Of a DNA stretch of 64,000 bases, positions 35,390-60,891 are shown piece after piece (position 1 is the stretch's first letter; each line of letters begins with the position of its first letter). This DNA comes from a virus, in IMG/VR virus record IMGVR_UViG_3300043427_002369, positions 9,509 to 73,508 of that record. One strand, written 5' to 3'. The notes below the pieces were generated by a model that was given only the letters and a program-made list of their open reading frames with translations, was not told the DNA's origin and did not search any database. The position numbers were made by a program, and so were the translations under genes.

Positions 35390-38300
35390 ATGGCAAAATA
35401 TCTCAGTAATCGTCAAAAAAATCTTAAAGTTGGTATCAGTTCTTATACTGAAAATCAAACAGTATTGGAGATTACTGGTAAGGTTGGTATTGGAACTGCA
35501 AATGCAACTGCTTCTTTAGACGTTGCTGGGGATGTTAGAATTCGCGGTTCTCTACAAGATGTTTATGGGACAGTTGGATCAGCAAGTTCAATTCTCGTTT
35601 CAACTGGTAATGGTGTTAGTTGGACGGACCCATATTCTGCAGGTCTCCAAGGAACTACAGGAACTGCAGGAAGTCAAGGGACCACAGGATCTCAAGGTAT
35701 TCAAGGACGTCAAGGTATTCAAGGACGTCAGGGAACAACCGGTGTATCAGGAGAAACTGGATCTACTGGATCTCAAGGAATTACAGGTTCTCAAGGAATT
35801 GAAGGATCTCAAGGATCTCAAGGAACCCAAGGTATTCAGGGTATTGAAGGTCAAACTCCAGAATCGACAGTTTATATTGCAGATTCATTAACACAGACAA
35901 ATCCATATGCGATTGGATTTACCCCAAGCCAAGTTTCTATAGCAGGAACCACCGGCGAATTTACATATACTTATGAGCAACTTTCTAATGTTGAGATTTC
36001 TGGAACTGCAGGACAGTTTTCCTGCGATGCAGTAACAAGTGAAATGTTAGGGGACTACACAATGGTAGTCCAAATTGTAGGAACAAATACTGGAACGGGA
36101 AGTATTTCTGGATATACGGATCCTAAGATTTATACCATTTCCGAAACAAATGGAACCACATCTTTCAAACTTACTGAATTAGTTACCGCAAACGGATTAA
36201 CTGCACTTCAGACAACTGCAGGAACAACTACAGGTCTAACTTTTTATCTTGGATATAGAATAGTTCAAAGAGCAAGACTTTCAGTTTCTGGAGATTTAAC
36301 TGGAACTGGAAGTATTACTGGATATTCTTCAACTTCACTTTATAAGATTAAGGATTCTAGTGTAATTGGTCCAAACGTTGGTATAGTTACATTTACACTG
36401 ACTGAGGATGCTTCTTCTGGACAAGTTGGAACTGCGCTTACAACAACATCAGGAACAACCACTGGGTTAAATTTTAAGGTAGTTTATGGTGATTATTTGA
36501 CTGGTGGTTTAGTCGGCATTCAAACATATGGTGATTATTCTTCTGGAAATTTTTATCAAGTAAATGATGAATCTGGTTTATTTCCAGCTTGGATTACTTA
36601 CATTAAGTATGATAGTGTTACTGCATTAAATCAAGTAGATTTAAATGTTCAATATACAAATACTTCAACACATACTGTTTTAATTCAACTTTATAATTGG
36701 AGCACTGGTGGATGGGTAGAAATACAAAGATATCAAGGTCTTGCAACTTGGACTCAATTCCAACCGGGAATTATTGATGGATATCCATTCATTAGTAATT
36801 TAAATGAAGTATTAGTTAGATTTTATCACCAATCTAGTGGATTTGCATCACATAATACTGAAATTGATTATGTTGCTGTTACCGATTCTATTGCTGGTGG
36901 ACAAGGTCCTAGAGGTTCTCAGGGAACTACAGGATCTGCAGGTGCTCAAGGGTCTAATGGCGCTCAAGGCACCACTGGTGCTCAAGGCACTCAAGGAATT
37001 ACAGGTCCAGTTGGAGGTTCTGCTAATCAGGTAGTCTATAAAGATGGATCTAATGTCCCAACAGGTTCTTCAAACTTAACATTTAATGGAACGGAGTTAG
37101 TAACCTACGATTTAACGATTTTAAATAATACTGATATTAATGGTAATTTAAATGTTGATGGAATCATCACAATCGGTGGTACAGCAGCACAACTCAATAC
37201 TCAAGAACTTGTAGTAGCAGACCCTGATATTGTTTTAGGTTTAGGAACTGATTTTTCACCAACAGATGCAACTGCAAGCCACGGTGGTATTGCAATTGCA
37301 TCCACTGAAGGAACTCCACTTGTAAGTCTTATGATTGGTGGAGAAACCAATCCAGACACATATAAGAAAATTATGTGGTTTAGGGGTGGAGATGTTGGTG
37401 CTGGATATACTGACGCTTGGTTATTCAATTATGGTGTTGGTATTGGAAGCACTCAAGTTCCTAATGGAGTGCGACTTGCTGCAGGTGGAATGCAAGTTAC
37501 CGATACAACTCTGAGTATTCCACAACTTAATATTTCTGATGTATCAACAATATCGGTTAATAGTTCTTCAGATGCCTTAAGAATTACTCAAACTGGTTCC
37601 GGCAATGCTTTAGTTGTTGAAGACTCTACAAACCCCGATGCAACTCCTTTTGTTATAAATTCAAATGGAAGTGTTGGTATTGGGACAACAGACCCATCAG
37701 CTTCTTTAGATCTTCAAGGCAGTTTAAAACTTTCTGGGCAACTAATTGATGCAAATAATAGTTCCGGTAGTTTAGATTCTGTTCTCGTTTCTATTGGTGT
37801 TGGTGTAACTTGGGCATTAGTTGAAGATGTCGCTCTACAAGGAGTTCAAGGAACCACAGGATCTCAAGGACGTCAAGGGATCACAGGTGCATCTGGAGAA
37901 ACGGGTGCTACAGGTGCGCAAGGAACTGAAGGTGTTCAGGGAACGATAGGAACTGAAGGTGCCCAAGGAACTACAGGAACTCAGGGAACTGAAGGTTCTC
38001 AAGGAACTACAGGAATTCAGGGAACTGCAGGAACTCAGGGAACCACAGGAATTCAGGGAACTACAGGAACTCAGGGAACCACAGGAACTCAGGGAACCAT
38101 AGGAACTCAGGGAACCACAGGAACTCAGGGAACTGAAGGTTCCCAAGGAACTACAGGAACTCAAGGAACTGAAGGTTCTCAGGGTATTCAAGGACGTCAA
38201 GGGACCACAGGTGCATCTGGAGAAACTGGTGCCACAGGTGCTCAGGGAACCACAGGTTCTCAGGGAACCACAGGTGCTCAGGGAACCACAGGAACCACAG

Positions 38301-58439: not shown

Positions 58440-60891
58440 TTTTTCATTAGATACTGAGAATGGAGAAAAAAATTATACTCTTGCTCAATGGTATGAGAAG
58501 CAAGGACATACTGCGCCGGCACATACTTATTATTTGAGAGCAGCAGAAAGAACTGATGATAAAATTCTTGCTTACAAAGCATTATTAAGGGCATCTTTCT
58601 GTTATAAATCTCAAGGTTCTAGAGATGGAACTGAAAAGATTTTACTAGAAAATGCTCTGAATTTTATTCCAGAAAGACCTGAAGCATATTATTTTCTTTC
58701 ATTGCTGTATGAAAGAAAGGCAGAATGGCAGAACTGCTACATTTATTCAAACTTAGGATTGCAGTGCTATTCTCCGGATATTGAAGATATTAATCTTCCA
58801 GAATATCCTGGAATGTATTCACTCATTTTCCAAAAAGCAGTTGCTGGATGGTGGTGGGGTAAAGGACCAGAGTCTAGAAAATTATTGTGGAAACTGGTCG
58901 ATGAATATTGGAATGTTATGGACGAAAGATTTAAATATAGTGTTGAAAATAACATTTCAAGAATAGGTTCTGGTCCAAAGTCCCAAGATGCTGTTTTTTA
59001 TTCAAAGGCAAATTATAATAACCTAAGACATAAATTTAACGGATCTGAAAGTATTTCAGTAAATCACGCTCAAGCATTTCAAGACATTTTTGTCTTAACT
59101 ATGCTAAACGGAAAGAGAAATGGAACATTTCTTGAAATAGGAGCATCTAAACCATTTGAAAGAAATAACACTGCTCTTCTAGAGAATACTTTTGGTTGGT
59201 CTGGTGTTGCAGTTGAACTTGATAAAGAATTTGCTACCTCATATGAATTGTTAAGACCTAATATAAAGGTCTTATGCCAAAATGCACTGCAGATTGATTA
59301 TTCTGAATTATTAGAAGAAAATTATACTAAAAATGTAATCGATTATCTTCAATTAGATATTGAGCCTGCAAGGAATACTTATGAATGTATGCTCAAAATT
59401 CCGTTTGATAAGTATAAATTTGCGGTCATTACTTATGAGCACGATGATTACATTGACATAACTCGCTCGTGTAAAAAGAAATCCAGAGAATTTTTAGAAG
59501 AAAGAGGATATGTTTTAGTCGTAAATGACGTATCAGTTGATGGCATTTCAACGTTTGAAGATTGGTGGGTGCATCCAGATTTAGTTGATCAGAATACCAT
59601 TAACATTATGAGATCTGATTTCAATAAGATTACAAATATCGGAGAATATTTTTACTCTAAGAGATACTACGGTGAGTTTGATACTGACAAGTATATTAGA
59701 GAACATTATTTTCCAGATATGAATTATACTGGAGTTTTTGTTGACGTTGGGGCAGGTCCACCGACATTTATAAGTAACTCAAAGCACTTCAGGGATAGTG
59801 GATGGAGAACTATATGCGTAGAACCAAATCCAAAATTTGCAAAACAGCATAAAGATGCTGGTAGTGAAGTATATGAATATGCTTGCTCAAATAAAGAAGG
59901 TAAGAGTAGTTTTATTATTAACTACAATAATGATAATTGGTATTCAAAAGAAAATGATGGGGTTAGTTTTTCTTCTTTAGGTATTAGGTATAAAGGAGTT
60001 CCCGCTCACAATACACAAGAAACTATTGAAGTTGAGACTATAAAGTTGAATACTTTACTGGAAAAAATTGATATAAATCGAGTAGATGTTCTTTCTATTG
60101 ATACTGAGGGGTGGGAACTGGATGTATTAGATGGATTTGATCATATTAAGTATAATCCAAAAGTTGTTGTCCTAGAAAATTTTGAAAAAGTTTCAAAATA
60201 TGAACAGTATATGAATAGTATCGGATATAAAAAAGATTTTTCTTTGGGACATAATGAAATATATTCGAAGGAAAAATCTACCTCTACAATATCTGCAATA
60301 TATACACCAACTTTCACAAAGGCTAAAGGAACTTCTTGGATCGTAGATAACTTTTACGAAAATCCAGACGAAGTCCGAAAATTTGCTCTGAATATAGATT
60401 ATTTTGAAGGAGGTATTGGTAGAGGATTTATCGGCAGACGATCAAAAGAACAATATCTATTTTCAGGTCTTAAAGAAAGATTTGAGGAGATAATGGGTAA
60501 GAAAATTACCGGATGGGAAGAATATGAGATGAATGGTAGATTTCAGGTTGCTTGGGCAGGAGAACCTTTAGTATGGCATTGTGATAGTCAGCAATGGGGT
60601 GGAATGCTCTATCTAACTCCAGAAGCACCATACCAATGTGGAACAACTTTGTATGCACATAAGAAGACTAGAGCAAGAACTTATTATGATCAAGGATGGG
60701 ATGCTGCGTGGACAAATGTTCCCGGAGATTGCCACCTCGACGGAACACCATTTGAACCTGTTGATGTTCTTGGGAATGTTTATAATCGTCTTGTAATTTT
60801 TGATGCAAGTTGTATTCATTCTGCTTCAGAATACTTTGGAACAGTAATGGAAAATGCAAGAATGTGGCAAATGTTCTTCTTTGATACTTGA
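58423..60891 (+). CDS. Fusion protein: TPR + two FkbM-like methyltransferases + 2OG-Fe(II) oxygenase-like domain
   Basis: GGAGGA RBS at 58409; P.RPEAYYFLS (TPR); FLEIGA...IDYLQLDIE; FVDVGAG...VEPNP...VDVLSIDTEG.E; IVDNFY.NPD...HCD...YNRLVIFD...HSA. Confidence 0.8.
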   Translation: MKEVIDFSLDTENGEKNYTLAQWYEKQGHTAPAHTYYLRAAERTDDKILAYKALLRASFCYKSQGSRDGTEKILLENALNFIPERPEAYYFLSLLYERKAEWQNCYIYSNLGLQCYSPDIEDINLPEYPGMYSLIFQKAVAGWWWGKGPESRKLLWKLVDEYWNVMDERFKYSVENNISRIGSGPKSQDAVFYSKANYNNLRHKFNGSESISVNHAQAFQDIFVLTMLNGKRNGTFLEIGASKPFERNNTALLENTFGWSGVAVELDKEFATSYELLRPNIKVLCQNALQIDYSELLEENYTKNVIDYLQLDIEPARNTYECMLKIPFDKYKFAVITYEHDDYIDITRSCKKKSREFLEERGYVLVVNDVSVDGISTFEDWWVHPDLVDQNTINIMRSDFNKITNIGEYFYSKRYYGEFDTDKYIREHYFPDMNYTGVFVDVGAGPPTFISNSKHFRDSGWRTICVEPNPKFAKQHKDAGSEVYEYACSNKEGKSSFIINYNNDNWYSKENDGVSFSSLGIRYKGVPAHNTQETIEVETIKLNTLLEKIDINRVDVLSIDTEGWELDVLDGFDHIKYNPKVVVLENFEKVSKYEQYMNSIGYKKDFSLGHNEIYSKEKSTSTISAIYTPTFTKAKGTSWIVDNFYENPDEVRKFALNIDYFEGGIGRGFIGRRSKEQYLFSGLKERFEEIMGKKITGWEEYEMNGRFQVAWAGEPLVWHCDSQQWGGMLYLTPEAPYQCGTTLYAHKKTRARTYYDQGWDAAWTNVPGDCHLDGTPFEPVDVLGNVYNRLVIFDASCIHSASEYFGTVMENARMWQMFFFDT

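Follow-up and report, generated by a model that had tools for sequence, protein, structure and literature searches.

Proline-poor collagen fibres and a paired propeller–FkbM cassette in a T4-like cyanomyophage: a candidate module for fibre glycosylation

A 64-kb stretch of viral DNA (positions 9,509 to 73,508 of IMG/VR virus record IMGVR_UViG_3300043427_002369; hereafter the window), taken from a 73.5-kb viral contig with an estimated completeness of 34%, carries two genes for collagen-like fibres interleaved with predicted glycosyltransferase, methyltransferase and oxygenase genes, and raises the question of whether a phage may coat its own fibres with its own enzymes. The terL gene of the window (62230-63879) is 81% identical to terL of Synechococcus phage S-SCSM1, and the best matches are all to T4-like cyanomyophages (Kyanoviridae); the window corresponds to the structural module of an uncultured marine cyanobacterial virus, a cyanomyophage of the T4-like group. 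An earlier note had proposed that a GT-A glycosyltransferase (47024), two free 2-oxoglutarate (2OG)-Fe(II) oxygenases (47745 and 48323), a GH130-like propeller (57453) and a multi-domain fusion protein (58423) form one system acting on the fibres. In our analysis this proposal narrowed to the last two genes (57453-60891; hereafter the cassette), which are retained by their pairing, their glycosyltransferase- and methyltransferase-containing relatives and their link with proline-poor collagens, whereas 47024 and the free oxygenases dropped out of it. We tentatively favour, at a little under an even chance, the reading that the propeller and the fusion protein would build methylated beta-mannose glycans on the collagen of the fibres late in infection.

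The first fibre gene (35390-43669, + strand) encodes fibre A, a giant collagen-like tail fibre of 2759 amino acids (aa) that ends in a Peptidase_S74 domain, the C-terminal intramolecular chaperone seen typically in phage fibres. It contains 493 Gly-X-Y triplets split over seven runs (Pfam Collagen, PF01391, E 1e-203), with Thr (41%), Ser (23%) and Ala (16%) at position X and Thr (49%) and Gln (38%) at position Y; Pro occupies 8 of the 986 X/Y positions, and the 1479 residues of the helix include 443 Thr and 131 Ser. The second gene (49088-54358, + strand) encodes fibre B (1756 aa; Pfam Collagen E 8e-40), in which a single N-terminal run of 90 triplets with 4 Pro is followed by a long non-collagen fibre body. 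Judged by the long Gly-X-Y runs and the profile match, both are collagen triple-helix repeat proteins, and their description as almost Pro-free fibres with mostly Thr, Ser and Gln at X and Y was borne out. The sequence GIQGRQG occurs nine times in fibre A, usually followed by G[AS]SGETG (eight times), and these motifs, which hold nearly the sole charged residues of the helix, might act as knots for register or stability or might be sites of recognition.

The first gene of the cassette (57453-58439, + strand) encodes a 328-aa protein predicted to form a five-bladed beta-propeller of the GH130/GT108 fold and considered here a putative beta-mannoside-forming enzyme. Sequence comparison alone gave no match in Pfam, PHROG or NCBIfam; a phmmer search against the PDB returned nothing, and a profile search of the PDB reached GH130 chains only at E 0.35-2. 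The AlphaFold model is of high confidence (pLDDT 95.2), and its top Foldseek matches in the PDB are GH130/GT108 proteins (E 6e-10 to 5e-6, TMq 0.50-0.61), the best being GH130 beta-1,2-mannobiose and oligomannan phosphorylases, the mannoside synthase Uhgb_MS and the GDP-Man-dependent MPT transferases of Leishmania, at an identity of at most 16%. The GH130-like character assigned to this protein earlier is thereby upheld, and some JGI records name its homologues 'GH43/DUF377'. Residues E118, D119 and R121 (E-D-x-R) are near-invariant in 45 sequences of the family, together with many invariant basic residues, and in a weak, non-significant profile match E118-D119-x-R121 aligns with LEDPR of chain 9fj8; in GH130 the Asp of the E-D-P-R-type motif is catalytic.

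Metagenomic relatives of the propeller are numerous (3385 matches in one search; 1951 representatives at 50% identity in another), while tblastn across the whole phage collection found matches in only three records. Nine of ten long homologues carry GT17, GT25, GT2, FkbM, Methyltransf_24, radical-SAM/SPASM or TPR domains. Among the structures of BFVD, a library of viral folds, the closest matches (TMq 0.71-0.79, 17-25% identity) lie within giant-virus or phage proteins of 450-1300 aa, mostly unnamed, with a few named fucosyltransferase, WcaK-like or LicD/FKTN; domains from Pithovirus-like, Solivirus, Satyrvirus and Indivirus genomes are among these nearest relatives. The fusions, the viral fold relatives and the constant neighbourhood of a fusion-family gene point to a role of the propeller in glycan synthesis, not degradation. 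Transferase activity has been described for some GH130 enzymes (PMC12814180). We regard it as very improbable that the propeller is a virion-borne depolymerase cutting a beta-mannoside receptor of the host: it does have the fold of a glycoside-cleaving family, sits among fibre genes and gives weak matches to tail-spike/sialidase-like phage folds low in the viral ranking (E about 1e-5, TMq about 0.45), but its mere 328 aa include no domain for anchoring to a fibre or for trimerisation, its partners are always S-adenosylmethionine-dependent enzymes, and it is not named among the virion proteins in the consulted text of the proteome paper on the cultured cyanophage S-SCSM2R (PMC12801897).

The second gene of the cassette (58423-60891, + strand) encodes the fusion protein, in which profile matches mark a TPR-like N-terminus, a weak and a strong FkbM domain and DUF6445. 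The TPR match is weak and that of the first FkbM domain lies below the cut-off (E 1.5e-3, 19.1 bits), whereas the second FkbM domain (residues about 440-610; E 5e-21) scores 84.4 bits with PF05050 (cut-off 22.7) and 61.9 with TIGR01444 (cut-off 37.7). DUF6445 is matched at 25.5 bits (PF20043, cut-off 24), and its residues H89, D91, H169 and R183 are invariant in 12 sequences, in an HxD..H..R arrangement that would correspond to an HxD..H iron triad plus Arg. An hhalign comparison of DUF6445 with the 2OG-FeII_Oxy_3 alignment gave a probability of 2.4%, a result weak either way given the heterogeneity of the latter alignment; the DUF6445 profile had no sequence match in the PDB, and a search of the fusion protein against solved structures likewise yielded nothing useful. 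From the invariant HxD..H..R pattern, not confirmed by the profile comparison, we infer that DUF6445 is probably an Fe/2OG oxygenase. The architecture TPR-FkbM-FkbM-2OG given to this protein previously is therefore firm in its second FkbM domain, weak in its TPR part and first FkbM domain, and indirect in its 2OG part. Of all parts of the cassette DUF6445 is the best conserved: apart from four of the 35 copies, identity is 75-96%.

The propeller gene and a gene of the fusion family occur together in 81 of 82 loci and constitute a conserved, fixed two-gene pair. Of nine such propeller neighbours scanned, five carry FkbM and/or DUF6445; the other four, proteins of about 1000 aa in more distant loci, carry several glycosyltransferase domains (GT2 plus Glyco_transf_7C, GT25, GT17 or WavE) and no methyltransferase. 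The cassette is present in two cultured phages, S-SCSM2R and DSL-LC02, in the latter between genes annotated 'collagen-like protein' and 'tail fiber protein', and is missing from their close relatives S-SCSM1 and S-BM3. Nine of 55 dereplicated loci (loci L006-L085, e.g. L009:1142-1987) have sulfotransferase genes close to the cassette, and a second genomic context was recognised, with glutaredoxin (17/55), DUF6433 (17/55) and ThyX (10/55) as frequent neighbours.

The association of the cassette with collagen was examined by Pfam Collagen scans of whole records. Collagen genes were found in 20 of 20 cassette-bearing records, including all five complete ones, and the collagens of all 20 are Pro-poor (Pro at most 8% of X/Y), with Gln at 50-98% of Y positions and Thr often present. 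Among 20 records selected by terL, collagen occurred in two and the propeller in one, which has both. None of 14 cultured complete cyanomyophages has the propeller; three of them (P-SSM2, S-PRM1 and S-CAM9) have collagen over the cut-off, and these collagens are Pro-rich (X = Pro in 51-68%). In dereplicated complete or near-complete genomes, Pro-poor collagen was present in 10/10 with the cassette and 0/17 without it (Fisher p 1e-7), and any collagen in 10/10 and 4/17 (Fisher p 1.5e-4). These tables comprise complete or at least 70%-complete records, with the window and G018 added to the positives, and a negative set of 17 genomes. Near-duplicates were merged (G006/G007 and G008/G009), G002 and G003 (duplicates of G001 and G011) were not counted, and G011 stands outside the ten positives since its record holds no terL; G019 and G020 (52% and 44% complete, no cassette found) stand outside the Fisher negatives and the second tree. 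Genome G005 (83% complete, with cassette and collagen) holds no terL and was therefore not placed in the tree. The closest terL relatives of the window (L170-L172, terL 84% identical, and G019, a contig of 102 kb) still carry homologues to the non-collagen portions of the two fibres and have neither Gly-X-Y runs nor the propeller on their contigs, a natural comparison of the states with and without.

The association was also approached from the collagen side, using a degenerate DNA pattern for GTQGxQGTQG and thus picking contigs without reference to the enzymes. The pattern matched 120 stretches, and of the 80 loci listed, 25 with three or more matches on contigs of 17 kb or longer were taken, of which two were already-known positives and 21 were scanned as new GTQ-collagen contigs. 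The propeller gene lay on the same contig in 11 of these 21, which are mostly 8-54% complete. Five new GTQ-collagen contigs put to terL typing held no terL on the fragments, and FkbM was found on three of these five. Where flanks of 8 kb or more were available on both sides (24 dereplicated loci), 13 loci have a Pro-poor collagen open reading frame (ORF) within 10 kb of the cassette, compared with 0 of 26 loci upstream of terL. The terL tree requires 4-6 gains or losses of the cassette, which is therefore not confined to one clade. The co-occurrence of collagens and enzymes expected by the earlier note was in this way recovered in both directions for the propeller and the fusion protein, with collagens of the Pro-poor Gly-X-Gln/Thr kind. 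As the pair was found only where Pro-poor collagens occur among the related viruses sampled, we see close to an even prospect that the fibres are sugar-coated by the virus.

In the reading that we favour, the cassette would be a fibre-maturation glycosylation module, made late together with the fibres. The propeller would add or extend beta-linked mannose, with GDP-mannose or mannose-1-phosphate as donor, the tandem FkbM domains would O-methylate the sugar, the TPR part would dock on or hold the repetitive collagen substrate, and DUF6445, as a probable Fe/2OG oxygenase, would add a further oxidative modification. The acceptor would be a sugar already present on Thr or Ser in the collagen stalks of the two fibres, with their proline-free (Gly-Thr/Ser-Gln/Thr)n repeats, and put there by a separate initiating protein-O-glycosyltransferase that probably differs between phages. 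While the folds and domains, the pairing, the fusions of the relatives and the co-occurrence with collagen are observed, the donor, linkage, acceptor and timing are inferred. In a broader formulation, which we advance with noticeably more reserve, the two genes would make up a mobile cassette for fibre maturation, combining a beta-mannosyltransferase of GH130/GT108 fold with a TPR-guided tandem sugar O-methyltransferase and a DUF6445 oxygenase. It would serve specifically the proline-free Gly-Thr/Ser-Gln/Thr collagens of phage tail fibres, as a class of their own, and coat them with methylated mannose glycans that, in place of hydroxyproline, would stabilise and shield them; its propeller module would be re-used in the glycan factories of giant viruses.

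A sugar-free modification of side chains appears to us quite improbable. Here FkbM would methylate and DUF6445 hydroxylate Gln, Thr or Ser of the Gly-X-Gln/Thr repeats, and the propeller would be a binding or chaperone module. The high conservation of DUF6445 with its invariant HxD..H..R residues and the dominance of Gln at Y in cassette-bearing genomes would suit such a role, and class I methyltransferases do methylate Gln of the Gly-Gly-Gln motif in release factors. However, the propeller retains the GH130-like E-D-x-R together with numerous invariant basic residues, among its relatives are fusions with bona fide glycosyltransferases, and characterised members of the FkbM family are O-methyltransferases of sugars and polyketides.

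Several observations weigh against glycosylation of the fibres by the cassette. The acceptors of known GH130 and GT108 enzymes are sugars and not proteins, so that glycosylation of the fibres calls for a separate transferase to initiate it. No such enzyme is co-conserved; the family profile of 47024 finds nothing in five of nine complete or near-complete cassette genomes and in three of six smaller fragments. The Pfam GH130 family (Glyco_hydro_130 / DUF377) is not matched by the propeller. Bacterial Pro-poor collagens can be stable by charge and polar residues alone, and the recurring GIQGRQG..GxSGETG motif may give fibre A such stability. Phage ACG-2014f has a Thr-rich Gly-Ala/Pro/Ser-Thr collagen (15% Pro, little Gln) and no propeller, and the propeller is absent from 10 of the 21 GTQ-collagen contigs, mostly small fragments, one of them with an estimated completeness of 72%. 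Independent contrasts amount to two pairs on well-supported branches and four on all branches, all in the same direction, which is too few for the link between cassette and collagen to reach significance. Cassette and collagen genes are 0.1-38 kb apart in the genomes with positions read, as neighbours in the same variable region, and such linkage would also be expected if the cassette and the fibre genes were inherited together in a single mobile block. No report of a glycan on any cyanophage fibre was among the papers found, and the propeller homologue of S-SCSM2R is annotated as a mannan-degrading, cell-wall-related gene (PMC12801897).

The variable region in question is defined by the gene order of the window (gp25, gp6, a 4521-aa ORF, gp8, a 2779-aa ORF, g13-g16, fibres, g17), which places the fibres and enzymes between g16 and g17; the position of g13-g16 is also given by homologues of 26291-30004 in relatives. 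The gap between g16 and g17 spans about 32 kb in the window and is small in most relatives: in the large majority of the 26 loci whose flanks were long enough, g13-g16 are found no more than 10 kb upstream of terL. Through this shared, horizontally exchanged hyperplastic region the cassette might merely travel with collagen genes while making or remodelling a methylated mannose-containing glycan of the host envelope (lipopolysaccharide (LPS), S-layer or cell wall) or a soluble metabolite, and could serve to block superinfection or to keep progeny off debris. We consider this main rival explanation a real one, if rather unlikely. The small number of independent contrasts and the use of sugar acceptors by known GH130/GT108 enzymes agree with it, as do the available flanks of 34 of the 55 dereplicated loci, which contain no collagen ORF and in which glutaredoxin, DUF6433 and ThyX are frequent. 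In the same direction, the 'LPS' clusters of P-SSM2 were proposed to alter the host surface (PMC1079782), and the S-SCSM2R homologue is listed among genes of 'cell wall synthesis and modification' (PMC12801897). Against it stand the Pro-poor collagens in 20/20 cassette records, with collagen otherwise rare (2/20 and 3/14) and then of a different type, and the persistence of the link from the collagen side (11/21) and across several genomic positions of the cassette. The TPR part fused to methyltransferases, moreover, suggests a protein partner, and the cassette genes lie inside the late structural block.

The glycosyltransferase-like gene at 47024 belongs to another neighbourhood. It is the third gene of a triad formed with a 679-aa repeat protein (phrog_19111; 44105-46144, + strand), which holds about 12 copies of IDYVTIATTGNAxDFGDL, and a 285-aa protein (46163-47020, + strand). 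Its product (phrog_1574; 47024-47788, + strand) is, by motif and model, a GT-A-fold DxD glycosyltransferase-like protein: the Pfam GT2 score (20.6 bits) is below the cut-off of 23.3 and a sequence search against solved structures gave nothing useful, while D71-A72-D73 is invariant in 21 homologues and the model, of moderate confidence (pLDDT 76.9), shows a GT-A fold. The DxD GT-A transferase named by the earlier note is confirmed to that extent. The best matches of the model to solved structures (E 2e-8 to 1e-4) include STIV A197, human COLGALT1, the GT domain of LH3, Mimivirus R699/R655 and ppGalNAc-transferases; the top ones, STIV A197, COLGALT1, LH3 and R699, have E 2e-8 to 4e-6 and TMq 0.37-0.50.

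The distribution of 47024 shows no link to collagen, and the co-occurrence expected for it was not found: there is no collagen ORF within 10 kb in any of its best 80 viral relatives, and no collagen above the cut-off in any of 20 records with close relatives, including seven complete small phages. A role as collagen-specific initiating transferase is not supported by these counts. The triad 44105-46163-47024 is kept in six of the seven closest IMG/VR loci, none of which has collagen, and distant paralogues of 47024 are present, with or without collagen, in 21 of 33 cyanomyophage records; one such paralogue lies upstream in the contig of the window. The protein-directed GT-A enzymes among the model matches leave 47024 a possible initiating enzyme in this phage only, with modest scores and a GT-A similarity that is generic. 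The repeat protein 44105 may be a partner or a substrate of the glycosyltransferase.

Both free oxygenases predicted earlier were confirmed by profile scores above the cut-offs. The first (47745-48326, - strand) is a 2OG-Fe(II) oxygenase of the 2OG-FeII_Oxy_3 (P4H/PKHD) type (PF13640, 53.8 bits, cut-off 27), and the second (48323-48994, - strand) belongs to 2OG-FeII_Oxy_5/TIGR02466 (PF13759, 78.9 bits, cut-off 27; TIGR02466, 76.9 bits, cut-off 62.5). Both are antisense to the fibre genes, and their families are widespread in cyanophages. The two helices together (1749 residues) contain 12 Pro (8 in fibre A and 4 in fibre B) and 2 Lys (2 and 0), so that classical collagen hydroxylation has almost no substrate; hydroxylation of collagen Pro or Lys as the main role of these oxygenases was rejected on this composition. 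A 2OG-FeII_Oxy_3 gene is found in 18 of the 55 dereplicated cassette loci, mostly one to three genes upstream of the propeller. The virion-sample proteome of S-SCSM2R includes a 2OG-type 'prolyl 3,4-dihydroxylase ofd1' (ORF269), and the collagen-like ORF204 of that phage is annotated 'FhaB' (PMC12801897).

A single pathway combining 47024, both free oxygenases, the propeller and the fusion protein is in our view unlikely. It is suggested by the interleaving of all these genes with the two fibres in the window, by the protein-directed enzymes that the 47024 model matches and by the oxygenase gene in 18/55 cassette loci. The close relatives of 47024 without collagen (0/80 loci, 0/20 records), its different triad in six of seven loci, its near-universal distant paralogues in cyanomyophages (21/33) and its moderate model (pLDDT 77, TMq at most 0.5) argue against such a pathway, as do the antisense orientation of the oxygenases and the near absence of Pro and Lys from the helices.

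Late expression of the + strand enzymes had been deduced from late promoters. The T4-type late-promoter motif TATAAATA occurs five times in the window, always on the + strand (16013, 28400, 30682, 54359 and 54365), against 9.0 occurrences expected, which is not above chance. The last two overlap (54359-54372), directly after the fibre B stop, and head the downstream gene block; a late-promoter-like AATAAATA (57412-57419, + strand), read from the sequence, lies 33 nt upstream of the propeller ATG, and the 47024 gene is located downstream of the fibre A gene in a tightly packed gene chain. The deduction is thus backed by motifs before the gene block at 54.4 kb and before 57453, and weakened by the overall count. 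In the region 43000-62500, sigma-70-like and terminator-like sites were no more numerous than in shuffled sequences; a sigma-70-like site immediately precedes the 48323 gene (- strand), and no inference was drawn from it. The twin TATAAATA is followed by an unlisted ORF of 70 codons (54393-54605) with a coiled-coil look by eye, and a small 'prefoldin' gene is annotated in S-SCSM1, there just upstream of g13.

Known systems offer partial parallels to glycosylation of the fibres by the cassette. Freeman et al. 2023 (Cell Host Microbe) are said to have described phage-encoded virion glycosylation in mycobacteriophages, where classical glycosyltransferases reportedly modify the C-termini of capsid and tail-tube proteins. 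Both cases have phage sugar enzymes that adjoin structural genes and are proposed or shown to decorate virion proteins; they differ in the core of the present system, which is of GH130/GT108 fold with tandem FkbM and DUF6445, and in its candidate substrate, a Pro-free collagen fibre. Giant viruses glycosylate their own fibrils. In common with the window they have genes for collagen-like proteins, multi-domain glycan factories of viral origin and sugars that are methylated, the last being a prediction here; the nearest viral fold relatives of the propeller are multi-domain proteins of giant viruses. However, they are viruses of eukaryotes, and the known modification of Mimivirus collagen is hydroxylysine-linked, whereas Lys is virtually absent from the window fibres.

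The BclA collagens of the exosporium have Pro-rich repeats (GPT) and sugars such as rhamnose, anthrose or GlcNAc; here Thr, Ser and Gln prevail at X and Y with almost no Pro, and the predicted enzymes point to mannose. The two have in common surface Gly-X-Thr collagen-like filaments, which in BclA bear O-linked oligosaccharides, with dedicated transferases encoded nearby; the tetrasaccharide of Bacillus anthracis BclA bears a 2-O-methylated sugar (PMC6222408), and Clostridioides difficile BclA3 is glycosylated by SgtA (PMC7157674). With GH130 phosphorylases and Leishmania GT108 the propeller shares the five-bladed fold and, it seems, the E-D-x-R motif and conserved basic residues (PMC12814180, PMC10913872); it is set apart by the missing Pfam GH130 match, the identity of 16% or less and its other partner domains. 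The g16-g17 hyperplastic region and 'LPS/cell-wall' clusters of cyanomyophages correspond to the locus in neighbourhood and kinds of genes, but the papers assign those genes to modification of the host surface or of DNA (PMC1079782, PMC12801897). The propeller homologue of S-SCSM2R has already been designated 'MGP' and called the first in a cyanophage (PMC12801897). Neither the fixed pairing of propeller and fusion gene, nor a Pro-free Gly-X-Gln/Thr collagen class in cyanomyophages, nor the link between cassette and collagen was found in the literature, subscription journals and supplements being outside the scope of the search.

If the favoured reading is true, phage-encoded virion glycosylation would extend beyond actinobacteriophage capsids to fibres that bind receptors in the cyanophages dominant in the ocean, a function would be given to two paired genes hitherto labelled 'mannan degradation / cell-wall', and very long collagen helices would have a glycan-based route independent of hydroxyproline. 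Glycan coats of fibres would bear on cyanophage host range, grazing and aggregation, and a beta-mannoside-forming GH130-fold protein, its paired methyltransferases and Pro-free collagen sequences would be of interest for biomaterials.

A small DUF7936 protein (43659-44102, + strand; PF25590, 54.8 bits) is encoded by a gene overlapping the 3' end of the fibre A gene, and profile matches identify a Gly_rich_2/tail-fibre-like structural protein at 54935-56701 (+ strand). Directly upstream of terL lies a gene for a 428-aa DUF5661 protein (60935-62221), with homologues in most of 80 terL loci. A megablast search of 44000-62000 against the phage collection gave no match. The giant structural ORFs at 2439-16004 (4521 aa) and 17567-25906 (2779 aa) flank gp8 and have no collagen runs of the fibre type. 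Long 'ORFs' in alternative or antisense frames of the collagen genes (37835-39181, - strand; 41226-42899, + strand; 49223-49846, - strand) are by-products of the collagen triplet repeat, and this alternative-frame stretch has a GC content of 0.46-0.47 versus about 0.32, with a strong AT skew.

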